Part shown: one piece after another, positions 2-61,025 of the stretch | Position numbering within the stretch: the first letter of the stretch is position 1 | Layout: every line of letters starts with the position of its first letter | Origin: a virus | IMG/VR virus record: IMGVR_UViG_3300029904_000006 | Coordinates: 1 to 64,000 of that record | Direction: 5' to 3' (one strand) | DNA length: 64,000 nucleotides | The notes under the pieces: model-generated | What the model saw: the letters and a program-made list of their open reading frames with translations, nothing else | What the model was told of the DNA's origin: nothing | Database searches by the model: none | Translations under genes and position numbers: made by a program

Positions 2-3000
2 AGAATATCGTTTAAAGTATATATTAATAAGATTATTCATAGCCATACGAACTTTAGTATTAGTTCTAAGACTATTAATACTTCTTCTAATACTTTCAAT
101 AGCTTCTTTAGTATCTTTATCTTCTGCTGAAGCATCAAGAGCAAATATCGTATCTACTCTATTGCCAAAAGTAACTGCATCAAGAATAACTTTAGCAATT
201 TCTGAGAAATACTCTGGATATTCTGCGAGAACATCATAAAGTTTCTCTTCGCTCATATCATAATTTTCACCAAGAAGTTCAAAGCTATTAATTTTATTAA
301 TAAGAGTGTTTGCAGCAGTTTGATAATATCTTGCAGCAGCAGTATAAATATTTCCTCTATTTTCAGCAAGACTACTACGGAAGTTTTTATTAACTCCTCT
401 ACGTTCTATATTACGAATGAAAGTAGTAGCTACATTACTATTATTTTTACGAGCATCAAAAGTAATTTGTTTAATAATAGCAGCCGATACGTTGTCAATG
501 TCTGTCCCTCTACGGGCAGAGTTGCCGATAACATCATCTCTATTGATAGTATCTTCAATATTGTCATCAATCATTACAGTAGCTGCATTTCTTATAGTTT
601 CTTTTTGCTCTTCGTTAGTTCGTTTAACTGGAGTAACTCTATAAATATTAGCAGACAATGGAGAAGTAGCAGTATCTTTAAGTTGTTTAACAATATAATT
701 ATATTCGTCTTTTCCTCTTTCAGTTTCTATATTAGTTTTACCATCAAGAACTGATTTAAGCTGACCACGAATCTTATTCTTTTTAGGAAGATGTGCAATA
801 GTAAATTCCATAGAGTTATTATTTTCATCAAATATACGCTGAACAGTAGATTTACCTTCAGGTATATATTGAGAAATAAGAGTATTGTTATCAAGTATAT
901 ACATTGCGTTATAATTATTCGCAAGAACTCTCGGAATCATTTTTTCAGCAATAGGTTTGGTAAGCATTTGAGCACCACCTTTAAGGAAACCGTCAGAACT
1001 TGTAGCCATAGCTTGAAGAGCCATTGGATTTTCCATAACCTCTTCCAACTTGCCCGTAGAGGGACGATATGTACCAATTTTTTGCTTTGTGGCTATAACT
1101 GTACGATTAGCATCAGCTATAATAGTTTTACTACCAACAGTTCTACGAGCTTCAGTAGCAGCTTCAAGTTCATTACATTTATCAGTGTAATAATCTTGAA
1201 CATTAAAACGATTAAATCGTTCATTATAAGAAACTTCATAAGTTTCATATTTTTCAAGAAGATTAAGAGGAACAAGATAATAATCTTTATAATCTGTTTT
1301 CTCATTGTTTGGGTCAATAGGATTACCACCTACAACGAGATAAAGAACATTATCTCTATTTTCATTCTTAGTAGGAAAGTTTACTTTAATATATCCATTA
1401 ACTCTATTTTTAAGTCTTAATTTATCAATAAGAGCTTGAGTCATAGAATTTTGAGAAGTATTATCAAGAACAACAAGACCATCTGGACGAGTAGCAGATA
1501 TAAATGCTTGAGTAGGACTCGGAATCATTCTATCATTACCTTCATTATCAGTTTTAAAACGAAGATTACCAAGACGAATTGTTTTAACTATTTCAGGATG
1601 ACTACGAACAAATAAATCAATATAACTTTCATCCATTTGTTCACCGGGCAAATCTCTTAATTTACGAACAACACCATTATTTTCAGCATGGTCAAGGTCG
1701 ATATTATTAATAATATCTATACCGCCTTGATTAATATCCGTATAAAGAGAATCGTTAGGAATAATCTTAGTAATATAACCGCTACGGAAATTAAATCCTT
1801 CAGCTATAAAAGCATATTTAATCAAATCAACACAAGCAAGTTTAATCAAAGGATTATGATTACTAAAACTATTACGGAAGAACTGAAATAAATCTTCAAT
1901 ACTATCTACTTGGTCATCATAAGAAAGATATTGACGACTTAGACCTTTGTTTTTAACATCAGTATTATTAAGAAGACTAACTTTAATATAGTTAAATATA
2001 CCTTGATTATCAGGGAAGTTTCTCTGCATAAAGAGAACTTTCTGAGCAGGAGTAAGTTTAATATATTCAGCAAGTTCTGCATCAGTAGGATGATTAACGT
2101 CAGCAACAGTAAAATTACCTTCATCAACAATACCATAACCAACAATACGGGAACGCTCGTTATTCCAGTAAATGTTAGCTGTTTTTAGCTCTGTTTCGTC
2201 TTCTTTTATTTTGTCGATAAATGGTATTATCCTACCTCGTTCATCTACCATAAGAGGCGTTAATAGCTTGCCAATACTATTATATAAGTACGTCATTCCA
2301 TATCTCCGCCACTCTTTATATTCCTTCTCATTAAATTTATGACCAATAACACGTTGAGCATGATTTTCAGCTTCAATGAAATCATCATTCTCAGTAATAA
2401 ATACTTGAGCACCAACTTGAATACTTGGAAGAGTAGAATAAGCATAAGCAGCAGCGATAGGTTTATTAACAGAAGCATTAACATTTATGTTGCCATTTTC
2501 ATCTAATGGGAACATAGCATCAGCCCAATTTTTATCACCTACTTTAAATACAGGATTAGTACGATATTCATTAACAGAATCACGGATACGACGTGTTTCA
2601 CGATTACTCGGTTTAGCACCAACTTTATCAACAGCACTAAATTGAATAATATTATTAATATGTTGAGCAGTAGTTTGCATTTGTCTAAATGCAATAAGCA
2701 TACTTAAATCAATAGCAGCTTGATTATAAGCAGTAGCTTGAGATTTATCTATTTTATTAGTACTATTCTGTGCAGCAGTTCTAATACGTTGGAAAATATA
2801 ATCCTTACGAAGAGGAAACTTAATATTCATAATATCATTATTTTCCATAGAACTAATATCTACACCAAAAATATTATTAAATGCAGTAACAAAATTAACA
2901 TCTTCTTTAAGGGCTTTTATGCTTCGTCCAAGAGAAGTATGTTTATCAATAGGAACAGTACCTTCATTCTTTTTATTACTTTGATAACCAAGACCTAAGT

Positions 3001-6000
3001 CAGAAGCTATGTCAGCAACAGTCATATCAACAGGATTGCCGCTATCACCAAAAAAGACAGAATTAGTAAGATTATAATTAGCAACAAGACGACTAATAAT
3101 AGGTTGACGCATAAATCCAACACTAAACTCATGGTCAAGACCTATACAAGTCATAAGTTTATATATATCAAAAGTATAAGCATTAACATTAGGAATACTA
3201 CCGCGTTTTACAGCATCAAGGTGATGTGCAGTAGTTTCAGCAGTATAAGTAGTAACATAATTACCTGTAATATTCTTATTGTTATTAGACCAGCCAAATT
3301 TGTTGAACTTAACAATAACTTGTTTAGAACTTTGTTCCCCTATTGTAGGAGTAATACCATTCTCAGCATTATAAAGTTCGACTGCAACAGCATGAGCCTT
3401 AGGATATTTATTAGCAAATATTTTACTTTCAACAAGAGCTTTAGAAATAGGATAACGAGATTTACTAATAATTTTATATCCTTTAATATTAGTATTCTTA
3501 ATTATTTTAGCTATTTCTTCATCAGTAACAGTATTACCTCGTTCCTCTTCTTTTTTAACATAGTCATTAATTGCTTTCATAGTAATCTTACGTTCTTTAA
3601 GAGGAGTATTGATATTATATTCAGCAACTTCTTCATAATTACTAATAATAGCAAAGAACTCATTAGACGTAGTGTTAGTAAGTAAATCCCAAATAGCTTG
3701 AGTTATAGCTACTTTACCTTTAACAAACTTAGGATATTCTCCAGTAATAGTATAAATAAGGTCTTTTATTTCATCAGTAGCTTTATAATGTCTTATACTT
3801 TCACTTCCATCATGAGTATAATGATGAGCAAATTTTATGTCGTAAGCATACGGAACAAAAGTTCCCCAATTAATATAAAAAACTTTATCATCCTTATCTA
3901 TACGAGCAGCAATAGGTTGAAGTTGTTTTAATCTTTCTTCAGTAATATAAACAGGAGTTTCTCCAAGTTCGTCAATTAAAATACGACGAGTAGGAGATTC
4001 TTTTGTTTCAGAAGTACGAGGAACAAGAGAAATAGTTTTATCGTTATCACTATAATCTTTCATATCCTCTTTATATGCAGCTTTAATATCAGCTTCATCA
4101 TAAGTAATAGCACTATCTTTAGCAGATACTCCGTCGAGATTAAGTACAGCATATACAGCTGCACCATCAGACAAATATCCATGAGCACGGTTACTTTTAG
4201 ATGCCATAGTATCCCAATTCACAGAACGAGCTTTAAGACCTGCTCCGCCCATAGCATCATCGAAATAATCAAGCTGAGTAAGAGGATTATAAGGACTAAT
4301 AAGTTTAGAAGCAGTACCTGATATTTTATTAATTACATCATTAGCACTATGGTCTTCTCCAGCAATGTCTTCAAACTGAGAACGTCCATATTGTTCTTCA
4401 CGAGAAGAAGCGTCATTCATAATCTTTATCATTCTATCAAGAATATAATTATTACGAGCACGACGACTAAGACGTTCAACAAAAGGAAGAGATTTAAAAT
4501 CTTCAAAAGATATAATACCTACCTTACCAGCTTCAATTTCAACGTCTTTAATCCAAGCATTAATATTATCTTCAATAGCTTGTTTTATAGCATCAGTCTT
4601 TTCTGCAAAATAATCTTCTTTGTTAAAAGTATAAAGACTACGTTGAGCATTAATAATATTAAGAAGAGTAGTTTGCTGGTCAAGATAATCTTGTACAGCT
4701 TGTACTTCCTCTACGGGCAAGGTATGATTGCTAAGATATTCAGTAAATTTTTCATTAATAGTAGGATAAGCATCAGTTAAATCAACTACAATTCCACTTT
4801 CTTTAGCTCGTTTCTTAGCAGTAGAGTTTATATCTTTAATAATACCACGCGCCCAACCGGGAAGACGCTTTTTATAAATTTCATTACGAGTAGCATCTTC
4901 TTTCTTATAAAGATTATCAAATTCAGTACGTTTAGCGTTAGCTTCTTTTTGTTCTCCACGAAGACGAGATTTTATTTCTTTAACAACGCTATCAATTTCT
5001 TCTCCTAAATCATTACGTTTAACTTTGTTATCAAGACGCTGATTAACATAATTAACGTAAAGCATACGGTCATCAGTAGTATCTTCTTCATAAGGAACTT
5101 TATGAATAGTAAACTTACCATCCTTACCTTTCTTACGATAAAGTTCCCAAGCAATACCATAAATACTATCAACATCAAAGTCAGAACCAGTTTGAGTTAC
5201 CCAAGCATCTGGAACTACAATAGTAGAACCAAGAGCGTCGTTAGTAAATCCTACTACTTTAAGAACAGATATAGATTGTTTACCTTCAGTAGGAATACGA
5301 TAACCAAGATGTATATCAAGACCAGCTTCTTCTATTTGTTTAAGAATAGCTTCATTTTCCTCAACTGTTTTACCTTTAGGAATAAGATTACTCCAGCGAG
5401 GAAGATATACTTGCATAACGCCTGTTTCAGGATTAAATTCAAGTTTCTTACTATAACCAATTCCAGTAATCTGAGCAGCGTGCCAACCGGGAAGAGTTTG
5501 ACGAGTAATAGCTTTATTAAACAAAGCTTGACCAACACTTTCAAGTTTCTGTTGAACGTTGTTCATAGCATTAGGCATGACAGGTTTGCCAAACTCATCA
5601 GGAATAAGATATTCCATAAAATTACTATCCATACCTAATCTAATAGCTTCTTGACGAGCACGAGCATAATAATCAGTAAGATTAAGAGTTTCTCTATTGC
5701 TTTTTATAGTTTCTGCATTGAGAAGATTACCATCAGCATCGGTAGTAGCATATTCACTATTAACTATCTTACCACTCTTATCAAGTTCCCATCCCATAGA
5801 TTCAAGGAAACTAAGAAAATCTTCACGAATATTAGCAGTATATGCTTCTTGATATTCATCAGCCCAATCTTGTACCTGTTTAGAAGCAGTAGTAACATTA
5901 TCGATAATCTTTTTACTAATCTGAGAACCAAGTTTATTTTCCTCATTAACCATGTGTTGAGGAACATCTTGTTGTTTATACAAATATTTATATTTATAAA

Positions 6001-9000
6001 TTTGTATATAAGAATCAGAGAATTTAGACTCAAAGTCTTTATCAAATTCTCCAGTTTGTTCATCCCAAATAGTAAATATATTTTTCTTAGCAGCTTTATC
6101 AGTTTCAGCAGTATTAAGCTGACCAATATCATTTTTCTTCATCCAATTATAAATTTGGACAAGAGGACTGTCTTCAGGAAGAAGTTTAGGAATAAGAACA
6201 AATTCAGCATTTTTAATCTGACGAGGAATAAATTGATTAGTTTCAGCATCAAAAACTTTATCAAAATAAAAATTCTTTTGAACTTGAATACGAGTATTAA
6301 TAGCATCAAGGTCAAGTTCTTCAGCAGAAACATTAGGGTCAAGAATTTGAGCAATTAAATCTTGATATTCATCAAGACTGCCCTCAGCTTCTTTACGACG
6401 AATAAATTCCTCAAAAGTAATAAATGATTGAGCATCGTTGGCAGTAGTATTATCCCAATAACCTTGAGCAATTTTAACAGAACGATTATGAGCACGTTCT
6501 CTATTCATACCTTGCTTAATAAATTCTTTTTCAAGAAATTTCTGAAGTTCATCAGCTTCATCAGCAGGTTTAATAGTATTATATATAGTAACAGCTCTCC
6601 AACCTGTACGAGCAATCATAGTTCCATTTGGATTGACTACTTTACCGTTATAAGTAGGAACTTCATAAGCAGAAGCTATACCATTTTTAGTTTGTTTTAT
6701 ATTAATAATAGCAGGAGAACCATTCCAAGTAATATCAGTAATTTCGTTCATGCTATCGGTAGCACTACAATTCTCATAAGATTCGCCTCCAGCTTGAGTT
6801 TCTTTTGTACGTTTAAGGAAATCACGAGCATTATTATAATACTTAAAATCTCCTTCAAACATATCATCATAGTTCATATTCATAACAGCACTATTAAGTA
6901 AAAAACTATTAATAGACTGTTCTGTATGAGGAACTTTCTGTTCTTTAAGAGCTTCAATATAATCAGCTATTTCATTACGAGAATCTTCAAGAAAAGCAGT
7001 AGTCCATTTACTAACCATTCCTTTAATATAACTTCTTTGAGCAGTAGAAAAATTAAGTCTAACTTTATTTCCATCAACTACAAGAAAACTATTCTCTCTA
7101 TTAAGATAATCTTCATTAAGCTGAAGTTTACCACCAGCGGTTTCAGTAAATAAAGCCGGCATACCTTCACGACCTCCCCCGTAGAGAGATAGTACATTCT
7201 CTATCTCTTTACCAAAGCTATAGCTTGTAGTATCAAATAAACGATTAAACTTAAACATATTACCAACAAGTCTACCGTTTTTAACAATAGCTTCGGTAAA
7301 ATCATTACCACCTTTCTTTCTTATTTTAGCAACAGCCTTTTCATCAAAATAAGCACGACCTATAAGTCCATTTACAGAAGTTTTAGTAACAAAACGACCA
7401 TTTTCATTTGTAAACAGATTATTAATAGCTTGAACAAACATATTCATTTCATCTAAGAAATGATTAAAGAAAGCAAGTTCAGCTTGAGCTCTATTATACT
7501 TAGGAGCACGAATCATAAATATCTTAGGAGCATCAGAACCGATACGCATAGGATAAACAGCACTGTCAAGATTACCAATCTTTTTAATATTACCGTTTTC
7601 CGTACGTTGAACTGTACTATTACTAAAAGCAATATATTGTGTAATAAAGAAATCAATCTTAGACATCTTATCATACACAGTTCCAACTCCAGAAGAAGAA
7701 TTCTTTACTCCATCAAATAAAGCATAACTAAGAATATTCTTAGCATAACTATATCCGTCTTTAGGGTCACCGTTAATAACAAAACCAGTAGGAGTTTTAG
7801 TAAACATACCCGGAGCAACAACTACTCCATTTTCGTCTTTAAGACCAAAGAAAATAGGATTATTAGAATACTGATTTTCTGTACCTTCTTTTGTTCCTTG
7901 AATAAGATATTCTCCAAATGCTTTAAGACCAGCAGCAGAATCTTCTGGACTTTTTGCAAGAATCATATCAAAGAAACGAGTTACAAAACAGTTTTTAATA
8001 ACGTCTGAAGCAGTATTTCCCTCAGCATTAGCAGTATTCATACGAGCACGAGACTCATTATATCTACTAATAGTATTAGCAAATCTAATAATAGATTGAT
8101 TTACAACAGGAGTAAGTTCATAAAGAGAAACATCAAATTCTTCTTTTTTAGGATATTGAGGATAATCTTCAGGTGCAAGACATTGTTCTTCAGCTATTAA
8201 ATAATCAGTATTCCATTTAGCAAGAGCATCAGTATATTCTCTATTTATTCTATCATAAGTATTATTAATATTTCTTTTAATATTACCAACACCATTAACA
8301 ATAGAAATCATATCTCGAATAATACTATTTATAATTTCTGTTTTATTAGGAAGTCTAAATATATTATCCAAATTAGTAACATCAAAGTTAGGAAAATATT
8401 TAGAAATAATAGTTTGAAGTTCAGGTTTAATAGAATCTATATCAGATTCTTTAACTCTTGAAAGTTTAGTAAGAGTAGAAGCATCGTTAACATCGTAATT
8501 ATTGTTATATGTACTACGAAGTTTATTCATCATATCAAAAGCAAGTTTAACATTACCAAAAGCATTAGGATTGCTATAATCAAATACAATACCGTCAGTA
8601 GCAGTAACATCGTTAATAGTACACATTACTTTATTAACAAGAGGCTTCGCAAAATTAGCATAAACAAAATTAGCAAGATTTCTATCTTGTTTTAATTTAT
8701 TAATAAAAGAACCAAAACCGTAAAGAGCTTTAATATTTTTAGACTTCTCTTCGAGAGAACTAATCATAGATTCAACATTAGAGAAATCCCCATGAGCAAT
8801 TATCTGAACAGTTAAATATTGAGAATCATAATAAGTCTTAACTCCAAGTTCATTATTAGTATCTATAGTTTGTACTTCGTCTTTAGAATTAAAAGGACTT
8901 TCAAGTTTAGGAATACGAGAAAGTATAAATTTCATTTTAGTAGAAATAGTTTGATTGAAGTTCTTATAAAGATTATCTTCCCAAGTTTTAGACGTTTCAT

Positions 9001-10045: not shown

Positions 10046-10120
10046 AACTTTATTCGTATTATAAGATTCATCACTATAATGAATAATAGTTAGAACTTGT
10101 TATTTTGTAAAATTATTATA

Positions 10121-43912: not shown

Positions 43913-43918
43913 AAAATT

Positions 43919-51237: not shown

Positions 51238-51396
51238 ATCTATAAGTATTTAATGGTTTAATAACATTACAATTATAACAATAAATAATAGTATCAGCAA
51301 TATAACGAACAACAAAATACCTAAAACTTATAGTAACTCCAACATTATTATATATACTGCTTCTACCAGTTTAATCTAAAATGCTCTATTTCCTTG

Positions 51397-51405
51397 CCCG
51401 TAGAG
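51397..51405 (+). repeat. CCCGTAGAG-family motif copy (plus), intergenic
   Basis: tttccttgCCCGTAGAGggactttt. It lies in the 327-nt portal-to-scaffold intergenic region, 159 nt before the ATG at 51237. Confidence 0.9.
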
Positions 51406-51488
51406 GGACTTTTGCATCAGCCAGACTTATAACTCATAATTCAATAAATTTAAGTCAAATATCGAGCTATAATTAGCTTATAAACGGC

Positions 51489-51526
51489 AAAAATAAACCC
51501 TACCGAAATATCACATTTCAGTAGGG
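51489..51526 (-). terminator. intrinsic terminator after the portal gene
   Basis: ccctac-c-gaaat / atttc-a-gtaggg stem (51498-51526; 11 bp with one mismatch) and a 5-nt loop, followed on the minus strand by TTTATTTTTG. Confidence 0.7.
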
Positions 51527-51564
51527 CTTAGCTTTCTAATAACATTGATAACAACAGAATTATC

Positions 51565-53982
51565 TTACTTCTTAGAAGAAGGTTTAGCAGTAGGTTTAGG
51601 TTTCATTTTAGCAATTTGAACTTTAGCTTTAATATCTTTTTCTTTAATTTGTCTATCTCGTTCTTTATTATAAGCATCAATATAAGCTTTTTGTCTTTCA
51701 ACATTAACCTTTTCTTGTTCTACACGAGCACGAGCAGCATCAAGACGATTGAGAGCTTCATTCTTATTGGCATCACCAATCTCAGCATTATAACTAATAG
51801 CATTAGCATCTGCTCTGATGAGTTCAATCTGTTGGTCAAGATAACCTTCAAGTTCTTTAGTCTTACGGTCTTCTTCACCTTTAACTCTAATCTTTTCAAC
51901 TTCAAATTCTTGTTGCATTTGAGTAGTCTGCTGGTCAAGTTGTTTAAGATGTTCTTCATGAGCATCTTTTTGCTCTTGAAATTTCTTAATAAGTTTAGTA
52001 ATAGTAGCAACGTTATCTCCTTCAATTGCAGCAATAGCCATCATATTATCACCATTCTGTGCAGCACTAAAAGCATATTGCTGAAGTTGTTGAAGTTTCT
52101 CACGTTCTTTAGTAGAAAGTTTACACTTAATAATATAATCAGCATAAATATGCTTATCGACATCAAGACTAATATATTTCAATTCTCCATGAGTATCACG
52201 GTAAGAAGTATCAAGTCCATCAATCCAAGCAAGTTTAGAATAATCCATATCTCTGTTATAATCTCGTTCTCTAACCATATCTGCAATAAATTCAATTATT
52301 ACAGAACCCATAGAGCCACGAATTACAGCCTCTTCAGTAACACTTTTGCCGGCACTATTAGCAATCTCACCATAACGTTGAGCAGTCATATCGACTTGCT
52401 CGTTAGCAGCGTTCTTAATTTCAGTAAGAAGATTATTAAGTTGAGTAAGATAATCTCCAATATTAGTTTCAAGTATTCTTACTTGTTGAGCACGAAGCAT
52501 ACCTTGGTCATACGTATCATCAACAGCAAGCATACCATCAGCAATCATTCTATAAAGAGTTTCTTCAGGAAATTTTCCAAGAAGAGATTTAGCAATTAAA
52601 AGAATATTAAGTTTATTCTTAGCAATAACCATTTCTCTGTGATAAGAAACAATATTATAAAATACTTGATAAGGCATCATAATATCAATAATACTGAATT
52701 TACCAAATCCGGGAAGAAGCTCATTAATACCATTATAAGGAAGTTTACCTTTACGATTAAAAGCTATAGCTCTTGCACCATAAGGATAAATTGCATCATT
52801 ACGAGTACCTATACGAACGCACTCATATACTTGAGGCTTCCAAATATAATCAATAGAAATATCTCCTAACTCAGGAGTAAGAGTATATTCATCATTTTCT
52901 ACTCTTGTATCAATAAGTCCAGCTTCATTTACATAAGTAACTAAAGCTCTGCGTTCTTCTCCTCTCCAAACAACGTGCCAAACATCAAACAAATCCGAAT
53001 TAAGGTCACGACGCATATTAGGTTCTCTTCTAAAAAGTTCACGTTCTTCTTGTGTAAACTTTTTACAAACATCAGGAAAAGTAGCTTCATATTGTCTGTA
53101 CATAAGTTCAATAGGAGTGGCATAAGATTGCTTAGCATAGTAAGTATTAAGAAAAGCACGTTGTTCATTATTAAGATAATCATCAAATTCATCCATAATT
53201 TGCTGATAACTTAATTTACGACGACAAGCAAACATATCATCATCTTCTCTAAACATATTGTCGGTATTAACAGGGAAAGCATCACGAGGATGTATAACTC
53301 GTTTAATAAGTTTTGTACCAACAACATCAGTATAAGTATAAGCCTCTCCGAAAGTTATAAAGTCAAAATAGAATTGACTATAAAGAATAGCATCTTCTGT
53401 TATATCTTGAATAACATTAAGAAGAGCTTGACCTTGTGCAGAAATATCATCTATATAATTATCATTAAATTCTTTAGTAAATGCTTCAACATCAATAGAT
53501 TGTTGAGGATTAAATTGTTGAGGGTCATTACCACTATTAACCCATTCTTGATAACTTTGTTGAATACGAGCAGCAATTTGTTGACTAACAAGACGTTGAA
53601 GTTCTTGTCTAAGCGCAGAATTACGAGCAAGAACAACTTCAGGATTATTAGCACCTACAATAAAATCATGAGGATTTTTATTATACTCACCAATATATCT
53701 ACGAATAACACCTTTCATAAGGTCATAATTACGCATAGTAGCAGGAAAACGAGTAAATCTTTCTTGAGTAGCATTATAAGGATTAAGTATCTTCTTATAA
53801 AATTCATCAGGAATTTTACCATGAAGAACACTATATTTAAGTTCAGTTTCGGTTACATCGCGACAAGCGTAACCTTGTGCAATAATCCAATCACAACAAT
53901 TAGCATACCAATCAGCTTCTTTTTTACGACTATTAGGAACACGTTGTTGTGGAAAATCAAATTGTTGAAGAGTAGTTCTCAT
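51565..53982 (-). CDS. portal protein
   Basis: ORF track, 805 aa. It lies immediately downstream of TerL with a 9-nt gap and has a long E/K/Q-rich C-terminal tail. The size and position are typical; recognised from memory as crAss-like portal. Confidence 0.75.
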   Translation of the reverse strand: MRTTLQQFDFPQQRVPNSRKKEADWYANCCDWIIAQGYACRDVTETELKYSVLHGKIPDEFYKKILNPYNATQERFTRFPATMRNYDLMKGVIRRYIGEYNKNPHDFIVGANNPEVVLARNSALRQELQRLVSQQIAARIQQSYQEWVNSGNDPQQFNPQQSIDVEAFTKEFNDNYIDDISAQGQALLNVIQDITEDAILYSQFYFDFITFGEAYTYTDVVGTKLIKRVIHPRDAFPVNTDNMFREDDDMFACRRKLSYQQIMDEFDDYLNNEQRAFLNTYYAKQSYATPIELMYRQYEATFPDVCKKFTQEERELFRREPNMRRDLNSDLFDVWHVVWRGEERRALVTYVNEAGLIDTRVENDEYTLTPELGDISIDYIWKPQVYECVRIGTRNDAIYPYGARAIAFNRKGKLPYNGINELLPGFGKFSIIDIMMPYQVFYNIVSYHREMVIAKNKLNILLIAKSLLGKFPEETLYRMIADGMLAVDDTYDQGMLRAQQVRILETNIGDYLTQLNNLLTEIKNAANEQVDMTAQRYGEIANSAGKSVTEEAVIRGSMGSVIIEFIADMVRERDYNRDMDYSKLAWIDGLDTSYRDTHGELKYISLDVDKHIYADYIIKCKLSTKEREKLQQLQQYAFSAAQNGDNMMAIAAIEGDNVATITKLIKKFQEQKDAHEEHLKQLDQQTTQMQQEFEVEKIRVKGEEDRKTKELEGYLDQQIELIRADANAISYNAEIGDANKNEALNRLDAARARVEQEKVNVERQKAYIDAYNKERDRQIKEKDIKAKVQIAKMKPKPTAKPSSKK

Positions 53983-53991
53983 ATCATTAAA

Positions 53992-56235
53992 TTAAAACCA
54001 TAATCTGTTAAGAATATCGTTTTCATCAATATTTTCGGCATTAAGAGGTTTTCTATTCTGCATTTCGTCTTCTGCAAGAATATTAAATCCTTTCCATTCA
54101 ATACCACGAAGAAGCATAGAAGAAACTCTATCGAAGTTACCCTTAACTGACCACTTCTTTAATTCGAGTATTGTTTGATAATCATAAATACGATGAAAAT
54201 TACGAACAGGATTTCCAAATTCATCCTTACCAATTTCTTCATAAAGAAACTCTTTTAGTAAACGAATACAATCGAGTTTATGTTGCTCACCAGAAATATT
54301 AAAACCATAAGTAGTATTAACTTTACCTTTAAAAGAAGCATCCCAAACATAAAGAGGCTCACAAGCAAGATATTGAAGAGCATTCCATTTACGGAAGTTA
54401 GAAACAGTTTCTCCACGATTGACTTCGACATTAGTTGTACCAATACAATTATAATAACGTGCAAGTAGATAACAAATTCTATCAGCTTCTTCAAGAGTAT
54501 CAGGACGACCATAATAAGTGCAAACAAGTTTTTGTTTAAAACCATTAAGAGGATGAGGATTCATCCAAACCATAATACTATTATGAGAATGTTTATTAGT
54601 AACTTCATCTTTATTTTTGTCTACACCAACAGGGTCATAATTAATACTATAAAGACCAGATGGAATACGTTTAACTAATTTACCAGCAATAGTAACTTCT
54701 TCATATTCAGGAGCGAACCAACGTCTAATACAACCATGAGGGTCTTCATGTCCTCTACGTGGAACACCAAGAATATAATCGTAAACTTTCTTACCTTCAG
54801 AATGAAGTCTGGCATTAGATTTAAACTGAACAATATTTCTATCATCCAGTTCAAGCATACCATCAACATAAAAGTGTAAATCAGAATCAACACGAAGTCT
54901 ATCTTCCCAAGCAGAAAGTTCTTCAGAACTAAATATATTTTCAGAAGCACTACTGAAAGATTCGGCAGGAAAATTAGCATACTGACCAAGATAATTAATA
55001 TAATCAGAATACTTCTTAACGCTTTCTTTCTTTTTAAGACGCTCACGACGAGCAATTTCAAGACCTATAAGAATATTACTATTACCATCTTTATCTACTC
55101 CCGGAACTCCGTCAATCTCACCTTGTAGTCCCCAACAATAAGGTTTAAAGAAACCACAAGTTTCATTACGGCAATCTCTATCCCAAACATTTTCAAAAGG
55201 CATAAAATTAAAGCCTTTAACATCATAAAAATTCTGTTCAAAGACTTGCATATTACCAGAAGTAGCAGTACCCCAAGCACAAAGCATACCAGTAGTATAA
55301 GAACCAGTACGCATAGCAGGTTCAGTAACGTTCATAAACTCATCAAAATTATCCATTGTAGATACCTCTTCGACTTTAACTTTTACCGCGTCTTTACCAA
55401 TAGCACAATCAGGATTATTTGCAGCAGAAACACTAATAAGAGCAGACCTCCAAGATTTATCTGCTTCCATACCATTAGGTAACTTATAGCCAAGTCTAAA
55501 GTCAGACTTGACAGTAGACATAATTCCGCGAACAAATGGAGTATTTTCTTCATAAAACTTTAAATCGTTAACAGCAAAGTCGGTAAGACCGCCAGTTTGA
55601 GTAAGATATTTTTTATCAACAGCAACATGAATAACTACTTTACGAGAACTTCCATTAACAGCGTTTGCTGAATCAGCAGCCATCATATAAGAAAAACCAC
55701 CACGCCGAGTCTTATCTATAAGAAGATGAAAACCATTTTTCTCAGCAAATTCCATTACATGGAACATCCAGAACTGCGAATCAAAGAACTTTGGGAAGTC
55801 ATAATACTTCTTAGCAGTATTTGTATTACCTCTTTGAATAGTTCTTTCATCAAGCTGTTCAATACGAATATAATTCAGAAAATTATAATGACTACCAGTA
55901 ATACGAACACTGTGAATAGTTCCCTTATCGTCCATTAAGCAAGGAGCAGTAAAACCATACTTCCGTCTATGCTGTTCTCTACGACGAAATTGTCTATGAG
56001 GAATAGAATCAACTTTATAAGAAGTATATTGACCTTTATGAGTTTTATAATAATTAGCTTGCTCATAAAAAAGTTCAGTATTAATAAACTTCCAACCCGG
56101 ACGAATATTCATAAGAAAACCTCCACTATCACCAATAAGAAACAAGTCATCGTCATCAACAAAACCAGCATCTTTGGCATGTTTATAACGAGACTTGTCT
56201 TCATTAATATAGTCGAGAAAAGGATAGCTTTCCAT
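53992..56235 (-). CDS. terL: terminase large subunit
   Basis: ORF track, 747 aa. Contains a Walker-A-like segment, DKTRRGGFSYM. It sits directly upstream of the portal. The N-terminus (MESYPFLDYINEDKSRYKH...) is recognised from memory as crAss-type TerL. Confidence 0.8.
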   Translation of the reverse strand: MESYPFLDYINEDKSRYKHAKDAGFVDDDDLFLIGDSGGFLMNIRPGWKFINTELFYEQANYYKTHKGQYTSYKVDSIPHRQFRRREQHRRKYGFTAPCLMDDKGTIHSVRITGSHYNFLNYIRIEQLDERTIQRGNTNTAKKYYDFPKFFDSQFWMFHVMEFAEKNGFHLLIDKTRRGGFSYMMAADSANAVNGSSRKVVIHVAVDKKYLTQTGGLTDFAVNDLKFYEENTPFVRGIMSTVKSDFRLGYKLPNGMEADKSWRSALISVSAANNPDCAIGKDAVKVKVEEVSTMDNFDEFMNVTEPAMRTGSYTTGMLCAWGTATSGNMQVFEQNFYDVKGFNFMPFENVWDRDCRNETCGFFKPYCWGLQGEIDGVPGVDKDGNSNILIGLEIARRERLKKKESVKKYSDYINYLGQYANFPAESFSSASENIFSSEELSAWEDRLRVDSDLHFYVDGMLELDDRNIVQFKSNARLHSEGKKVYDYILGVPRRGHEDPHGCIRRWFAPEYEEVTIAGKLVKRIPSGLYSINYDPVGVDKNKDEVTNKHSHNSIMVWMNPHPLNGFKQKLVCTYYGRPDTLEEADRICYLLARYYNCIGTTNVEVNRGETVSNFRKWNALQYLACEPLYVWDASFKGKVNTTYGFNISGEQHKLDCIRLLKEFLYEEIGKDEFGNPVRNFHRIYDYQTILELKKWSVKGNFDRVSSMLLRGIEWKGFNILAEDEMQNRKPLNAENIDENDILNRLWF

Positions 56236-56241
56236 AATATC

Positions 56242-56652
56242 TTATTTAGCTATAAGACCAATTATAAGACCTGCAACAGCAGCACCTGCACCATATCCAA
56301 TAATCTTATTTTTAGTCTTTTGTTTTTCTAAGTCTTTCTTAACCGCTTCGTTAAGTTTATTAGCATCAGCAATTCGTTTTTGAAAATCAGTAATAATTTT
56401 CTGTTGTTCATTAATATATTTATCTTTCATAATAATAACAGAATCTTGTTCATTAGTAATACGAATTAAATAATTACGTTCAATCATCTTAGCATTAGCA
56501 AGACGAATATAACCAATATTAATCGTTATAGTAGTATCTGATTTTAGCACTCCGCCCGTAGAGGCAACACTATCATTAAGGTGCTGTGCATAGCTTTTTA
56601 AACAACTTAATAGCAGCACTATCACTAAGCTCAAAACTTTCAGTAACTTCAT
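56242..56652 (-). CDS. 136-aa envelope protein with N-terminal signal/lipobox-like sequence and C-terminal TM (unimolecular-spanin-like topology)
   Basis: ORF track. MKLLKVLSLVIVLLLSC has a possible lipobox (LLSC). The middle is a coiled-coil, and the C-terminal IIGYGAGAAVAGLIIGLIAK is hydrophobic. It lies next to the endolysin and contains a motif copy. Confidence 0.35.
   Translation of the reverse strand: MKLLKVLSLVIVLLLSCLKSYAQHLNDSVASTGGVLKSDTTITINIGYIRLANAKMIERNYLIRITNEQDSVIIMKDKYINEQQKIITDFQKRIADANKLNEAVKKDLEKQKTKNKIIGYGAGAAVAGLIIGLIAK
56555..56563 (+). repeat. CCCGTAGAG-family motif copy, long form (plus)
   Basis: taGCACTCCGCCCGTAGAGGcaa. Read as A-S-T-G-G-V-L-K. Confidence 0.95.
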
Positions 56653-56896
56653 CTTTCATTTTCTTTTTAATATTATAAATAACAGAATCTTTTTTAATAA
56701 TATTATATTCTATAGAATCAAAAATAACTTTATTGTAAGTTGTATCAGGTACAACTTCATTATTATTTTTATTATTTACATTACACGTAAAAAATATTAT
56801 CAATCCTAATATAATAAATCCAATAATAAAACGAGTAATGGTAATTATAACATCACGCTTTTCCATACTGCATAAGATTATATTTAAGTTCATCAC
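56576..56896 (-). CDS. 106-aa single-pass membrane protein (holin or i-spanin candidate)
   Basis: ORF track. The TM segment is VIITITRFIIGFIILGLIIFF. The true start may be the internal Met (MEKRD, about 56866). Confidence 0.4.
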   Translation of the reverse strand: MMNLNIILCSMEKRDVIITITRFIIGFIILGLIIFFTCNVNNKNNNEVVPDTTYNKVIFDSIEYNIIKKDSVIYNIKKKMKDEVTESFELSDSAAIKLFKKLCTAP

Positions 56897-57275
56897 TCCA
56901 TTTACCAGTAACAGTCATCATAAGAACTTGCTGTGCAATTCTAATAGCAGTAGTTTTACCACAATTAACACAAGTATCAAACATTTCGTGAGCAATACTT
57001 TGACTCGGAATATCATCAAGTTCAAGAACGTCCCAGTAATTTTGTTTATAAAGAAGTTTAGCACTATTGGTAAGAGCTGTATCTTTTTTAAGACGAGCAG
57101 TTATATTATTAAGACCTTTCTTTTTTTCAGCATCAATAATTCCCCATCCTATCCATTTTGGATTGTTCTTACGACTAATTCCAAGATAAGTTTCACCTCC
57201 AGCATCATCTGGTTCATTCACGTAGCCACCTTCGGCAAGGATTAATTTGTCAAATTCTTCATCAAATCGTGCCAT
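56853..57275 (-). CDS. GH108-family N-acetylmuramidase (endolysin)
   Basis: ORF track. LAEGGYVNEPDDAGGETYLGIS matches the GH108 signature EGGYvndpxDxGGxTxxGI. Confidence 0.8.
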   Translation of the reverse strand: MARFDEEFDKLILAEGGYVNEPDDAGGETYLGISRKNNPKWIGWGIIDAEKKKGLNNITARLKKDTALTNSAKLLYKQNYWDVLELDDIPSQSIAHEMFDTCVNCGKTTAIRIAQQVLMMTVTGKWSDELKYNLMQYGKA

Positions 57276-57495
57276 AAGGATTAACTATTTTATTATAAAG
57301 TTCAATAGATTCATATTTACAAAAGTTAGCATCATCATCATAATCAAGTTCACGAAACTTTTTAATAGTAATCCAAAAGAATAATACTTTAACTTGAACT
57401 TTAAAAGAAAGTATATAATAAGGAATATCATCATCATAAGCACCATATTTACTTACAGTAACTCGATATTTATTATTTCTAACAATAACTTTCAT
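57262..57495 (-). CDS. 77-aa protein, function unknown
   Basis: ORF track; sits within the lysis cassette. Confidence 0.65.
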   Translation of the reverse strand: MKVIVRNNKYRVTVSKYGAYDDDIPYYILSFKVQVKVLFFWITIKKFRELDYDDDANFCKYESIELYNKIVNPYGTI

Positions 57496-57501
57496 AATAT
57501 A

Positions 57502-57831
57502 TTACTCATTTAAAACACGATTAATCCAACCACGAAGATATTTAATATTATTGCCTTTAGCAGCAACATCGTTATAATATTTAATACGACCAAGTTTATA
57601 TCGAGCAACAAATAAATCTTCTCCAAGAGAATCTTTAACATAAGTAAGAGTATCTTGAGTATGTCTAAGTTGTTCTCTATAATAAATAAGACTATCAACA
57701 CAAGTAGTATCTTTTATAGGAATATATATAGTCTTTTCAACAGGAATAGTATTATTTTTAAAATTAGTACAAACAGTACAAATAATAATAATACATATTC
57801 CAACTATTATTATACTAAATATTTTCTTCAT
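57502..57831 (-). CDS. 109-aa signal-anchored protein (i-spanin/holin-associated candidate)
   Basis: The track ORF is 57502..57861. I prefer the Met at 57831 (MKKIFSIIIVGICIIIICTVC), which abuts the nuclease stop at 57833-57835. It has an N-terminal TM and a helical C-terminal part. Confidence 0.4.
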   Translation of the reverse strand: MKKIFSIIIVGICIIIICTVCTNFKNNTIPVEKTIYIPIKDTTCVDSLIYYREQLRHTQDTLTYVKDSLGEDLFVARYKLGRIKYYNDVAAKGNNIKYLRGWINRVLNE

Positions 57832-57832
57832 G

Positions 57833-58831
57833 TTAATCAAATAAACCTTTATTACGAACAATATTAGCTTGAATAACTTTTCGTCTATCAGTAAGAATAT
57901 TAATAATTTCTTGTTTAAGATACTTCATTTTATGAAGAGTAACTTTCTCAACAGGATTCTTCTTAATATGATAAAGACCATCAGGAAATCTTTTAGGCAT
58001 ACCATATTCATTAAGAACAAAATCTGAATCAATATGACAAAGCCAAAGACCAGCATTAGGAATACCTAAAATAGATTCTACCATAAAAGCATACATAGAA
58101 AGCTGAAGATTATAAATAGCTCCATTACAATCTGGAAGATGATTTACAGGAGGAAGTAAAGTATCATTCTTAGTAATCCATTCATCAGTTAATTGATGAG
58201 GTTTTTGAGTTTTATCTTTCTTATAATATCCAGACTCAAATTTAAGACCACCTCTATTAGTTTTCCAATCACCAATAACAAATTGGTCATCACGAATACA
58301 AAGAACGTCAATAGTTCCAGACACAAGATAATCAATAAGGAAAGCTCCAATCTCAGAATAAATCTTATATCCGGCATTAGTATAATAATCAAATACTTTA
58401 TATATTTCAGGATATTTATTTTCAGTAGCATCAATGAACTCTTTAATGTCAAGTTCTCTAACATTTATATCTATATTTGGAAGGTCAGCAATAGTAATCA
58501 TTTCTCCATTTTCACGAATCATATATTGAACTGCCTTACGAAACATAGAAGAATCTTTAATACCATCTTCAAGACCATTATGAGTTTTTGTTCCACGAGC
58601 ACAAGCTTCATCAGTTATATCTTGCCATTGTTTAGCAAGACGAGATTCAGATATACCAAGTTCTTTAGCTTTTTTCTTAAGCCAATAACTTTTATCAAAG
58701 GTAGATTTATAATCGTGTAGTAGGGTAGTAGTAGACTTATATTCATTACCAAAAGTATCATTATATTTATGACCTTCTTCTTTGAATATAAGTCTTACAT
58801 CATTATATCGAGTATCTCTAAGATTCAGCAT
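57833..58831 (-). CDS. PD-(D/E)XK (RecB/Cas4-like) nuclease
   Basis: ORF track. EGHKY...TTT, GTIDVL, IGDWKT and LQLSMYAF give the motif I / D / (D/E)xK / QxxxY layout. Confidence 0.65.
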   Translation of the reverse strand: MLNLRDTRYNDVRLIFKEEGHKYNDTFGNEYKSTTTLLHDYKSTFDKSYWLKKKAKELGISESRLAKQWQDITDEACARGTKTHNGLEDGIKDSSMFRKAVQYMIRENGEMITIADLPNIDINVRELDIKEFIDATENKYPEIYKVFDYYTNAGYKIYSEIGAFLIDYLVSGTIDVLCIRDDQFVIGDWKTNRGGLKFESGYYKKDKTQKPHQLTDEWITKNDTLLPPVNHLPDCNGAIYNLQLSMYAFMVESILGIPNAGLWLCHIDSDFVLNEYGMPKRFPDGLYHIKKNPVEKVTLHKMKYLKQEIINILTDRRKVIQANIVRNKGLFD

Positions 58832-59036
58832 CGTCTATTATTTTACAATCGTCCATATTAATTTTTACAAAATGCTTAGTAATATCATCAGCAATAACGA
58901 GTTTATCAGGTTCATTATTATTTCCTGAAATAAATCCAACTATTTCTCCTGTATGTTTTACTCCTTGATTATAAGTAATTGGAGTACTATTAACAATACG
59001 AGTGCGAACTTGTATAACTGTATATTCTACTTTCAT
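58818..59036 (-). CDS. 72-aa protein, function unknown
   Basis: ORF track. Confidence 0.65.
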   Translation of the reverse strand: MKVEYTVIQVRTRIVNSTPITYNQGVKHTGEIVGFISGNNNEPDKLVIADDITKHFVKINMDDCKIIDDAES

Positions 59037-59039
59037 AAT

Positions 59040-59648
59040 TTAATCTTCATCAGCGTCCATACTACTAAGAATCTGTTTACCACCACGAGCAAGTTGTTCT
59101 TCTTCCTCATTGCGAAGATTCTCATAAGCAACACTAAGAGCTTTGGTAAGTGCAGGAATTTCAACTACACGTTTACTAACAGAATCCATCATAGTTAAAA
59201 TAGAAGTAATATCTTCATCAGAAATAGCACCAGAAAGTTTCTTATTAAGAATATCATTAATCTTAGTAGCAGCAAGAGAAACTAAATGAATAGACTTATG
59301 AAGAACTTCGAGAGCAACACCAGCTTCTGTAATATTTTGAGTATAATATTTATCAATAAGTTTACGAACAAGAGAGTCTATTTGATAATCTTTAGGAAGA
59401 TTAAAATTATCAATAGCCATTTGTAAAGCCTCAGCATCAGTAAGACCTTGTTGCTTGGCAGGAGATTTCGGGTCGCCCAGATAATAAATAACTCCAACTT
59501 CAGCAATATATTTACGCTTATCTTTTGTAGTATCTCTCTGCCAAAGAAGTGCTACATCTTTATCAAGTATTTGACGAAGAGTAGGAGCTTGTGGCATACC
59601 GGTTTCATCAATAGTAAGCATCTTATCTATATTAACAGTAGTAGCCAT
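59040..59648 (-). CDS. 202-aa protein, function unknown
   Basis: ORF track. Confidence 0.8.
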   Translation of the reverse strand: MATTVNIDKMLTIDETGMPQAPTLRQILDKDVALLWQRDTTKDKRKYIAEVGVIYYLGDPKSPAKQQGLTDAEALQMAIDNFNLPKDYQIDSLVRKLIDKYYTQNITEAGVALEVLHKSIHLVSLAATKINDILNKKLSGAISDEDITSILTMMDSVSKRVVEIPALTKALSVAYENLRNEEEEQLARGGKQILSSMDADED

Positions 59649-59650
59649 AG

Positions 59651-60175
59651 TTAATCTTTTAGTTGATTATAATAATCTTCAAATTCTTGAGAATAAGGAA
59701 CTTCTTTTAATCCTCTAATAGAAAAAATAAACATTTCAGCATAAGCACGTCCTAATTTCTTATATAATTCATCATAACGCTTTTTATTATTACGACGAAT
59801 TTTAGTCATAATCAATTTTTCAGCATCAGCTTTATCCATCTCTTGACCAAATTCATGAACAATATCTTTAACGTGTTGTTTATAATCATTCTTAGACATA
59901 TTCTTTCTCATAAGAGATAGATGCAGTTTAGCATCACGTAACTTACGTTTAATAGGATTAATTCTAAGACAACCAATAAATGGAAGAGAAACAGTTTTCA
60001 TTTCTCTAATTGCAAAAGCAGCATCTTTTTCAAGATTAGTAATAATGGACTCACAAAGTAAACGCTCATCTTCATCATTAAAGTCCATATCATTAAGAAT
60101 ATTATTTATATCCTTACTTATAATGACATAATTTTCTCCAATGTCAGCAACCTCAAATTGTACTTCATCATTCAT
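59651..60175 (-). CDS. 174-aa protein, function unknown
   Basis: ORF track. It is the first gene after a 124-nt intergenic region carrying a motif copy. Confidence 0.8.
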   Translation of the reverse strand: MNDEVQFEVADIGENYVIISKDINNILNDMDFNDEDERLLCESIITNLEKDAAFAIREMKTVSLPFIGCLRINPIKRKLRDAKLHLSLMRKNMSKNDYKQHVKDIVHEFGQEMDKADAEKLIMTKIRRNNKKRYDELYKKLGRAYAEMFIFSIRGLKEVPYSQEFEDYYNQLKD

Positions 60176-60246
60176 AAGCTAAGAATTATTAGTAATAGCA
60201 AATAGAGCAGATACAGTAATTATAGCCAATACTGCCAACAACTCTG

Positions 60247-60255
60247 CCCGTAGAG
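60247..60255 (+). repeat. CCCGTAGAG-family motif copy (plus), intergenic; left arm of a 16-bp inverted pair
   Basis: caACTCTGCCCGTAGAGGaata (16-mer at 60241-60256), 71 nt before the ATG at 60175. Confidence 0.95.
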
Positions 60256-60299
60256 GAATAACTATTGAATATCACCTCTCCATTTGCTTTATATTATTC

Positions 60300-60845
60300 T
60301 TAATTAAGATTACTATCATAAATTACAAACGGGTCAATACCATTAGCTTCACGAGGAACAGTAGCCTTAATATCTGATACAGGAACAATCTTAAATTCAA
60401 GAACAATAATATTATCACGTTTAGTCATATCCTTAAAGATAGGATTAGAACGAGTTATAATAGATTTTGTCAAAGCCTCATCAGAAGCTAAATAGTTACG
60501 AGCATTATCAGTGCTAATCATAACAGGAAGACTAAGATGAGTTCCCATTTCCAAAGCACTACGACTAATAATAACTTTATCGCTTACAGCAGCATTTGTT
60601 TCAACAGCATCTTCTTCTGAAATCTTAGCCAAAACCGGAACAACAGAAATACTGTGTTCTTTCTTGCTATTCATAGCAACGACAAAATCAAAAAGACGAG
60701 TTTTAAAACACAAAGCAATAATACAATAATGTTTAGGCAATTTAACTTGCTCTGTAATACTCGTTAAAACTTCAGGTGTTAGTTCATCAACAGAAGTAGG
60801 AAAATTAATTCCATAAGACTTCTTTTCGCTTTTAATTTGAATCAT
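60300..60845 (-). CDS. 181-aa protein, function unknown
   Basis: ORF track; bracketed by the inverted motif pair. Confidence 0.8.
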   Translation of the reverse strand: MIQIKSEKKSYGINFPTSVDELTPEVLTSITEQVKLPKHYCIIALCFKTRLFDFVVAMNSKKEHSISVVPVLAKISEEDAVETNAAVSDKVIISRSALEMGTHLSLPVMISTDNARNYLASDEALTKSIITRSNPIFKDMTKRDNIIVLEFKIVPVSDIKATVPREANGIDPFVIYDSNLN

Positions 60846-60884
60846 AATTTGATTAATAAATAAAACATTAATAAGAGCAGGATG

Positions 60885-61025
60885 TTACAATAATTCTCCC
60901 TCTACGGGCAGAGTGCTATGAACTCCAACAGCAATATCTGCAACATCGGCAGGACTAAAAATAATAACACGAGGTGGATTAATAGTTCCAGCTCCACCTA
61001 CTTTAAGAAACTCAACTTCATTCAT
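60885..61025 (-). CDS. 46-aa small ORF (not in track)
   Basis: Hand translation gives MNEVEFLKVGGAGTINPPRVIIFSPADVADIAVGVHSTLPVEGELL. It uses typical genome codons and ends 39 nt before the next ATG. Its 3' end is built on a motif copy (LPVEG frame). Confidence 0.45.
   Translation of the reverse strand: MNEVEFLKVGGAGTINPPRVIIFSPADVADIAVGVHSTLPVEGELL
60900..60908 (-). repeat. CCCGTAGAG-family motif copy, long form (minus); right arm of the inverted pair
   Basis: Plus strand tcccTCTACGGGcagagtgc (16-mer at 60899-60914); reverse complement GCACTCTGCCCGTAGAGGGAG. Confidence 0.95.

Follow-up and report, generated by a model that had tools for sequence, protein, structure and literature searches.

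The uptake signal sequences (USS) of Pasteurellaceae and the DNA uptake sequences (DUS) of Neisseriaceae have an over-represented core of about 10 nt within a longer consensus, occur equally in both orientations, are spaced more evenly than by chance, occupy tolerant coding positions, form inverted pairs at gene ends and differ between lineages as dialects. Single-strand initiation (ssi) signals and primosome assembly sites (G4-type sites, and ssiA and ssiB of RSF1010 with the RepB′ primase) are strand-specific, tens of nucleotides long and found as opposite pairs at origins, with a hairpin beside a specific sequence. Baculovirus homologous regions (hrs) are dispersed repeats that act as origins or enhancers; they are intergenic clusters of 30-bp palindromes, about 8 per 130 kb. 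The nick sites of T5 and of phiKMV-like and tf/LUZ24-like phages number 4–14 per genome, all on one strand, and their function is unknown even in T5 (PMC3517423). Here we describe a dispersed, asymmetric GC-rich motif with the 9-nt core CCCGTAGAG in a 64,000-nt stretch of viral DNA (positions 1–64,000 of IMG/VR record IMGVR_UViG_3300029904_000006, referred to here as the window) and its counterparts across the Intestiviridae. The motif is very probably a cis-acting DNA signal, not an RNA or protein element, that is read in an orientation-specific manner by a co-evolving and probably phage-encoded factor. The DNA of the window, 75–78% identical to that of cr3_1 and Carjivirus, belongs to an alpha-type crAss-like phage; over 52145–64000 it matches its source genome, a 94,974-bp JGI contig, at 100% identity. 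Few viruses of the human gut are as abundant as the prototypic crAssphage and its relatives, yet almost nothing is known of how they replicate, package their DNA and are regulated.

In its statistics the motif is closest to uptake sequences, and in its biology to the phage nick consensus sites; the defining feature of each is missing. As with USS and DUS, it is over-represented and oriented, occurs on both strands, is evenly spaced, uses specific reading frames, includes inverted pairs and has dialects that co-evolve with a reader. However, its carrier is a crAss-like phage genome without uptake machinery rather than a competent bacterium, its density is about three times lower, its regularity holds per orientation and its conserved block is longer (18–26 nt). 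With the phage nick sites it shares dispersal, asymmetry, positions kept in relatives and a presumed co-evolution of site and enzyme, but it has about 30 strand-balanced, regularly spaced sites. A possible likeness to ssi signals lies in composite copies and opposite-strand pairs near RepL genes, strand switches and a predicted origin. Classical ssi signals, however, form structures in every case and occur in small numbers at origins only, and the motif is mostly unstructured, genome-wide and located inside genes. Chi, the FtsK-orienting polar sequences (KOPS) and the SpoIIIE recognition sequences (SRS) are likewise oriented oligomers with kilobase-scale spacing, but are 5–8 nt in length, strongly skewed with replication direction and belong to cellular chromosomes; the purine-rich 3′ half of the motif, GTAGAGGGA, bears only a loose resemblance to the G/A-rich KOPS and SRS. 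Like hrs, the motif is an element repeated at intervals around a viral genome, although as single asymmetric words inside genes and not as palindrome clusters. Because there is no competent cell and the sites are not one-stranded, we class the motif among dispersed genomic signal sequences. We found no description of it in the open literature using motif strings and keywords, a search that left most subscription journals outside its reach.

Copy number and dialects

The occurrence of the motif in the window is non-random. The core has 15 exact matches, compared with 0.07 on average, and 1 at most, in dinucleotide-preserving shuffles. The preliminary description of this DNA, made from the letters alone, had counted 15 exact copies against fewer than 0.1 expected and had named shuffled controls as a check; its coordinates and strands were all recovered, and the shuffled counts fall far below those observed. 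A 16th copy, at 21575, has a single core mismatch (CCCGTAGAA). Allowing up to 3 mismatches, the 20-mer consensus finds 8 copies in the window and 0 in shuffles, and a 13-mer search with the same tolerance returns all 16 copies plus only one possible decayed site, at 33424–33436 on the minus strand. An unbiased k-mer enrichment scan of the window ranked sub-words of the motif at the top of the 8-, 9- and 10-mers alike and gave no second strongly over-represented word. Alignment of the window copies yields the extended consensus aCTC(C/T)G-CCCGTAGAG-G(G/A)A, with a 5′ variant that is one base shorter, CTTG-CCCGTAGAG. The copy at 7178, previously called degenerate, has an exact core and departs from this consensus in its 5′ flank only.

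The signal extends across the family in the form of dialects. We compared the complete genomes of p-crAssphage (BK010471), cr3_1, cr8_1 and cr107_1, which represent four genera and all three subfamilies of Intestiviridae, and found that each carries 28–31 copies of a dialect of its own: ggnTAGAC(Y)CCCCGT(R)GAGGATGGA in p-crAssphage (31 copies), gYTCCCCCGTA(R)AGGAA in cr3_1 (31 copies), CTCTAGCC(S)CCCCGTAAAAGGTATGTA in cr8_1 (28 copies) and TTCCCCC(R)TA(R)AGGAG in cr107_1 (28 copies), where Y is a pyrimidine, R a purine and S is G or C. Common to all of them is a core of CCC(G/A)T followed by purines. The dialect of crAss002 is of the cr107_1 type, and 79 metagenome loci centred on the primase gene provided further dialects, among them CTTGCCTGTAGAGG, CCCCTGTAAAGA and GTAGCTTGCCCGTAG(G/A)G. 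No comparable word was found in the sampled sequences of Steigviridae (crAss001), Suoliviridae (cr10_1) and Crevaviridae (cr127_1). The presence of one dialect per genome, together with the orthologous positions described below, points to a single co-evolving reader that acts in trans. In practical terms, the motif and its dialects form a compact signature for recognising and classifying Intestiviridae in metagenomes.

A TARA marine scaffold (L102), the primase of which is 35% identical, contains the over-represented word TAAGCCAGTAG at 5 sites in 14 kb. This word resembles the gut motif GCCCGTAGAG; it may be a further dialect, and gives a hint of a system that predates the gut Intestiviridae.

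Nucleotide-level selection and per-strand spacing

Scanning IMG/VR with a search pattern yielded relatives at 67–95% identity. Their 9-nt cores are 98% identical at orthologous positions (168/171), compared with 83.6% for the flanks, and this conservation holds at sites with flanks that are only 66–70% identical. The core is also conserved at sites that do not match the search pattern and are thus free of ascertainment bias. Orthology reaches across genera: for the window copies at 21575, 26792 and 48275, p-crAssphage and cr3_1 both carry a motif at the equivalent point of the protein; the copies at 7178 and 23227 have an orthologous motif in cr3_1 only, and that at 56555 in p-crAssphage only, where it is read in a shifted frame (PPRG compared with STGG). 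Orthologs that lack the motif (that of 23227 in p-crAssphage and that of 56555 in cr3_1) align without gaps. The sites are therefore old, maintained at the level of DNA and turned over by substitution, which excludes both a mobile insertion element and explanations at the protein level. Purifying selection on the nucleotide sequence itself, as the preliminary description had proposed, is strongly supported by the contrast between core and flanks, the orthology across genera, the change of frame and the use of rare codons (below), and conservation in related crAss-like genomes, which it had suggested checking, is evident at the orthologous positions.

The genes of the window are syntenic with p-crAssphage gp44 to gp86 and nearly all lie on the minus strand. 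As had been reported, the copies fall in unrelated genes as well as in intergenic DNA: 12 are in long minus-strand open reading frames (ORFs), and only those at 51397 and 60247 are clearly intergenic. The copy at 60900 lies in a small ORF of 46–49 amino acids (60886–61035, minus strand), which ends just past it; because gene callers call this ORF as a gene in public assemblies, the copy is probably coding rather than intergenic. Copies in the sense orientation are translated as xPVE(E/R/G) (four) or xARR(G/D) (two), and antisense copies as (P/S/A)STG(G/K) (six) or, at 7178, as LYGGG. The frames had been thought to be limited to PSTG, xPVE and xARR. Avoidance of the frame that contains the stop codon TAG is complete among the window copies, but the limitation to three frames fails at 7178, which uses a fourth. 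The copies are built from codons that are rare in this genome, each 1–7% of its amino acid: CCC (6% of Pro), ACG (3% of Thr), GGC (7% of Gly) and GTG (2% of Val), the four rare codons singled out earlier (2–7%), as well as GGG (1% of Gly), with GCC and TCC likewise rare. The PSTGG, PVEE and ARRG peptides in unrelated proteins are thus by-products of a DNA signal, which calls for caution in annotation and evolutionary analysis.

Spacing is regular for each orientation taken separately. In the four complete genomes, each strand carries 13–18 copies, and the coefficient of variation (CV) of same-strand gaps is 0.32–0.46 compared with about 0.9 for random placement (P ≤ 0.004 in 8/8 strand sets). 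These gaps average 5.4–7.5 kb, with minima of 1.2–3.6 kb, whereas the smallest gaps between opposite strands are 26–82 bp and the CV of the pooled spacing is 0.64–0.70. In simulations, the spacing fits an exclusion of about 3 kb between copies of the same orientation; an exclusion of 1 kb was rejected. Orientation alternates more often than expected by chance in the complete genomes (P = 0.001–0.02), as it does among the 16 window copies (12 changes in 15 steps; permutation test, P = 0.024), so that the alternation noted for the first ten window copies generalises to other genomes. Per-orientation regularity is the signature expected if a cost depends on the distance that a directional process travels to a correctly oriented site. 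If a directional reader does lie behind the per-strand spacing, the concept of Chi-, USS- and KOPS-like genomic signals would extend to viruses.

The arrangement is independent of transcription. Of the 31 p-crAssphage copies, which are spread over both arms, 18 are antisense to genes and 13 are sense; the plus-strand gene arm of cr3_1 has 8 copies in each orientation; and 9/16 window copies are antisense. Both orientations occur in both transcription arms, with no orientation skew with replication direction of the kind that characterises Chi. We also considered compositional asymmetry around oriented copies. In five genomes, GC skew steps by −0.058 from upstream to downstream (P < 0.001) within ±300 nt and the step is gone at 1–2 kb; this small step was not interpretable and was set aside.

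Composite copies and candidate readers

A minority of copies are composite, with a GC-rich module 2–8 nt upstream, either a series of tandem CGCTY pentamers or a small GC hairpin, often with GCTTCGC; some of these modules lie inside coding sequence. The complement, GCGAAGC, forms a very stable DNA mini-hairpin that has been reported at some replication origins. In three genomes, 9/11 GCTTCGC sites lie 16–24 nt upstream of a motif in the same orientation. The GCTTCGC/(CGCTY)n module is present in 2–4 copies per genome in three genomes, or about 7 per genome in p-crAssphage and cr107_1 if other small GC hairpins are counted, and a strong upstream hairpin accompanies 15/132 copies (6.6 expected). 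Composite copies occur near predicted origins. In p-crAssphage, the composites at 28173 and 95865 are both members of tight opposite-strand pairs, each pair adjoining one of the two RepL genes, and the composite at 95865 is just upstream of the repL gene that is preceded by the origin predicted by Schmidtke et al. (PMC10983915). The cr3_1 composite at 44005 is at a strand switch, and the module is also carried by the copy of the source genome at window-equivalent position 68221. Many lineages also share, at a conserved position about 10 kb downstream of the primase gene, a pair of copies on opposite strands.

Two further regions have features of origins. At L092:12351–12513, four copies in + − + − order lie within 170 nt of intergenic DNA and form two long hairpins, an arrangement that looks like an origin or a terminator. 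In the window, positions 61134–61300 contain a 74-nt alternating purine–pyrimidine tract (CA/CG/TA, prone to form Z-DNA) followed by about 100 nt of pure A/T. This region looks like a replication origin; it lies at a strand switch, between the divergent small genes 61313–61753 (minus) and 61840–62148 (plus), both of which have weak matches to HTH_36 (winged helix). The pair of copies at 60247 and 60900 is within 1 kb of the tract (about 220–880 nt). Similar purine–pyrimidine tracts occur in cr8_1 (66093–66145) and cr107_1 (252–279), with none in p-crAssphage or cr3_1.

Beyond the composite copies, secondary structure did not account for the motif. In the four genomes, complementarity of the flanks is no better than that of permuted pairs, so no conserved stem surrounds the copies. 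A hairpin with variable outer stems, which seemed present by eye, was rejected because this permutation test gave no excess, as was a small inner hairpin in p-crAssphage (CTCC-CCGT-GGAG) because two common variants within the genome break the stem. The window has no Rfam matches. An RNA processing or pairing element, one of the options first raised for the motif, was not borne out given that there is no bias with respect to transcription, no Rfam match and no conserved stem. Pairing with a guide or primer RNA through G·U wobble, a candidate suggested by the Y/R degeneracy, found no support: transitions dominate among the variants in two of the four genomes only (transitions:transversions of 40:10 in cr3_1 and 25:6 in cr107_1, against 42:34 in p-crAssphage and 15:36 in cr8_1).

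A signal of about 20 nt that is present in about 30 copies per genome and constrains many essential proteins must serve an important process. We tentatively favour a site at which phage DNA synthesis is primed or initiated in a strand-specific manner (an ‘ssi-like’ site), because spacing is regular per strand, orientation is indifferent to transcription and composite or paired copies occur at origin-like regions; from these observations we infer a replication protein as the reader and priming or initiation as the reaction. The approximately 14–15 copies per strand, one per 6–7 kb, would then offer start points on whichever strand turns single-stranded, to be used by the replisome, a primase or an enzyme that generates nicks or primers. 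Composite copies (the motif with an upstream (CGCTY)n or mini-hairpin), often in opposite-strand pairs, would be stronger sites and the main origins near strand switches. Framed more broadly, about 30 strand-specific ‘self’ signals, one per 6–8 kb on either strand, could form a genome-wide system in the Intestiviridae, served by a dedicated co-evolving phage enzyme, either as a viral counterpart of Chi and USS or as distributed multi-site initiation of replication; we regard this as possible, and know of no such genome-wide self-signal system described for any phage. The roughly 30 defined sites and the cultured members of the group (crAss002 on B. xylanisolvens and C. communis on P. vulgatus) provide an experimental handle.

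Several observations weigh against strand-specific priming. DnaG- and T7-type primases are known to read 3–5 nt, not 18–25 nt. The primase of the family, a match to phrog_12622 (‘DNA primase’) without any Pfam or PDB sequence match, has a homolog in the motif-free cr10_1, and its AlphaFold model, of poor quality (predicted local distance difference test (pLDDT) score of 58), has no Foldseek match. With no support from Pfam, PDB or Foldseek, motifs that appear DnaG/TOPRIM-like by eye and this same homolog in cr10_1, a RepB′-like or archaeo-eukaryotic primase was not supported as the reader. Most copies lack a hairpin, unlike classical ssi signals, and orientation does not switch between genome arms as a fixed bidirectional origin with priming of the lagging strand only would predict. 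The window tolerates a gap of 17–25 kb per strand, so no single site is essential. A RepL homolog is not detectable in the complete cr3_1 genome, for which reason RepL (PF05732 in p-crAssphage) was rejected as a universal reader. Finally, the spacing fits any directional reader equally well, for example a nickase or a translocase.

Among such readers, a site-specific phage nickase that recognises both strands and leaves a nick at each copy in virion or replicating DNA strikes us as rather unlikely. Its strand-specific reaction would account for the per-strand spacing, and a hairpin that precedes a conserved single-stranded stretch recalls the architecture of nic sites. The known nick consensus sites are 9–19 nt in length, dispersed, co-evolving with lineage and similarly positioned in relatives, all of which holds for the motif, but the systems described are one-stranded (PMC3517423), whereas the motif is strand-balanced with 13–18 copies on each strand. 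With about 15 nicks per strand, some only 26–120 bp from one on the other strand, double-strand breaks would be a danger. No nickase candidate common to all of the motif-bearing genomes was found, and in a weak, indirect test the ends of fragmentary metagenome contigs fell within 200 nt of a motif in 12% of cases compared with 16% at random. We consider it improbable that the motif is a Chi-, KOPS- or USS-like ‘self’ tag, altering a translocating enzyme (by stopping degradation or loading a recombinase) and so protecting or marking broken phage DNA. A directional reader predicts what is observed, namely that copies of the same orientation are spread out and those of opposite orientation are independent, and the density of one copy per 6–7 kb in each orientation is comparable in magnitude to that of Chi. 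There are parallels with USS and DUS in the tolerant coding positions, the inverted pairs at gene ends (p-crAssphage 22902/22928 and the L092 cluster) and the dialects, and the phages encode a superfamily 1 (SF1) RecD/Pif1-like helicase, a PD-(D/E)XK nuclease, RecT and a Gam-like protein. On the other hand, the conserved block of 18–26 nt is far longer than both KOPS, at 8 nt, and Chi, the 5–8-nt word read by host RecBCD/AddAB. Copies show no bias in orientation between genome arms, a Gam-like nuclease inhibitor would make mimicry of host Chi unnecessary, and a host enzyme is a poor candidate reader for dialects that follow the phage genera.

Double-stranded binding sites for a phage DNA-binding protein, with a role in organising or compacting the genome, in its recognition for packaging or in global regulation, have a still lower probability. 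A non-directional binder predicts regularity of the pooled copies, and what we observe is regularity per orientation (CV values above), with opposite copies as close as 26–82 bp; moreover, regulators usually bind intergenic DNA and about two thirds of the copies are coding, and pac sites are single compared with about 30 copies per genome. The length and asymmetry nonetheless suit a protein operator, the two degenerate positions (Y and R) are typical of many protein recognition sites, small winged helix-turn-helix/RepL-like proteins are encoded at the strand switch, and crAss002 packages its DNA by a headful/pac mechanism (PMC8042965). Very little weight falls on a promoter for a phage RNA polymerase (RNAP) or a factor-specific terminator. 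In favour are the asymmetry of the element and its length of about 20 nt, the orientation of some intergenic copies towards downstream genes (for example, p-crAssphage 3336, 22902, 28078 and 95746) and the fact that the promoters of the crAss virion RNAP are unknown. However, the genes are uniformly oriented and about half of the copies run antisense to them (9/16 in the window, where 12 are inside long ORFs), and regular spacing on both strands has no transcriptional rationale. In phi14:2, early transcripts of the virion RNAP have no common upstream motif and the middle and late genes are transcribed by host RNAP (10.1101/2020.03.07.982082). The preliminary description had compared the motif to the promoters of single-subunit phage RNAPs and cited a 19-mer ending in GGGAGA. 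Neither point stood: no T7-like RNAP is annotated in the complete cr3_1 and p-crAssphage genomes, in which the sole RNAP is the giant two-barrel virion enzyme (gp44-like), copies run with and against genes about equally and mostly within ORFs, and a terminal GGGAGA is found in one copy only. Equally remote are a target site of a sequence-specific DNA-modifying enzyme and a mobile GC cluster or other miniature element propagated by insertion; a modification target and a mobile GC cluster had both been raised at the outset. A GC-rich island in 30% GC DNA and the single dialect throughout each genome (as in concerted evolution) would be compatible with either, but modification enzymes normally recognise 4–8 nt. 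As for mobility, orthologous sites are gained and lost by substitution without insertion or deletion polymorphism, positions are stable across genera, copy number is steady at 28–31 in four genera, and the copies have neither terminal repeats nor target duplications.

Window copies and neighbouring features

The individual copies are listed in Table 1, with the composite copies of other sequences.

Table 1 Motif copies in the window, the possible decayed site and composite copies elsewhere (window coordinates unless a genome or locus is named)
Feature	Position	Core	Strand	Reading, gene context and orthologs
Motif copy	505–524	508–516	−	Sense, NSARRG; ORF 1–10099 (−), p-crAssphage gp44 homolog (giant RNAP catalytic protein); kept in relative L009
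Motif copy	1045–1064	1053–1061	+	Antisense, PSTGK; gp44-like ORF
Motif copy	4706–4725	4709–4717	−	Sense, LPVEE; gp44-like ORF
Motif copy	7170–7189	7178–7186	+	5′ flank CCTCC; antisense, LYGGG; gp44-like ORF; ortholog cr3_1 33863
Motif copy	11428–11447	11431–11439	−	Sense, QPVER; ORF 10177–17865 (−), gp45-like (RNAP-associated)
Motif copy	14946–14965	14954–14962	+	Antisense, PSTGG; gp45-like ORF; opposite-strand pair with 15285, 331 nt
Motif copy	15282–15301	15285–15293	−	Sense, LARRD; gp45-like ORF; relative L005 has one core change, CCCGTAGGG
Motif copy, one core mismatch (CCCGTAGAA)	21567–21586		+	Antisense, PSTGG; ORF 20572–22185 (−), gp47-like; core perfect in relatives; orthologs p-crAssphage 51407, cr3_1 20975
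Motif copy	23224–23243	23227–23235	−	Sense, SPVEG; ORF 22903–26238 (−), gp49-like; ortholog cr3_1 19022; p-crAssphage ortholog without motif, no indel
Motif copy, perfect 20-mer	26784–26803	26792–26800	+	Antisense, PSTGG; ORF 26242–27093 (−), gp50-like tail tubular protein; orthologs p-crAssphage 58728, cr3_1 14360
Motif copy	44064–44083	44072–44080	+	Antisense, SSTGK; C-terminal end of ORF 44056–44628 (−), gp68-like
Motif copy	48272–48291	48275–48283	−	5′ flank CCTCC; sense, SPVEE, about residue 31 of ORF 47225–48376 (−), gp73-like; orthologs p-crAssphage 83015, cr3_1 89915
Motif copy, intergenic	51389–51408	51397–51405	+	Between gp75-like gene (start 51237) and portal gene (end 51565)
Motif copy	56547–56566	56555–56563	+	Antisense, ASTGG; ORF 56242–56652 (−), gp78-like; ortholog p-crAssphage 91288 in other frame (PPRG)
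Motif copy, intergenic	60239–60258	60247–60255	+	Between ORFs 59651–60175 (−) and 60300–60845 (−); L015 ortholog has upstream GC-rich module
Motif copy, perfect 20-mer	60897–60916	60900–60908	−	LPVEGE, near C terminus of small ORF 60886–61035 (−); about 220 nt from origin-like purine–pyrimidine and A/T tract
Possible decayed copy (GCCAGTGGAGGGA), 2 mismatches	33424–33436		−	Sole motif-like sequence in the 17-kb copy-free tail-fibre block
Composite copies	p-crAssphage 28173, 44954, 95865
Composite copies	cr3_1 44005, 77146
Composite copies	cr107_1 6913, 53275, 89691
Composite copy	L036:16077 (window-equivalent 68221)

The 17-kb motif-free fibre region recognised at the outset was confirmed as a gap of 17,280 nt, from 26800 to 44072. 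The copy-free block consists of tail-fibre genes, mostly without p-crAssphage homologs. Its 15-kb stretch at 28800–43900, in which the relic at 33424 is the only possible trace of the motif, may be a recently exchanged host-range module that has yet to acquire the signal. With regard to the idea that copies mark the boundaries of recombination modules, the breakpoints in identity between the window and its relatives show no visible coincidence with motif copies. Between the portal and gp75-like genes, about 90 nt from the intergenic copy at 51397, a terminator-like hairpin of 17 bp with a T-run occupies positions 51494–51530 on the minus strand.

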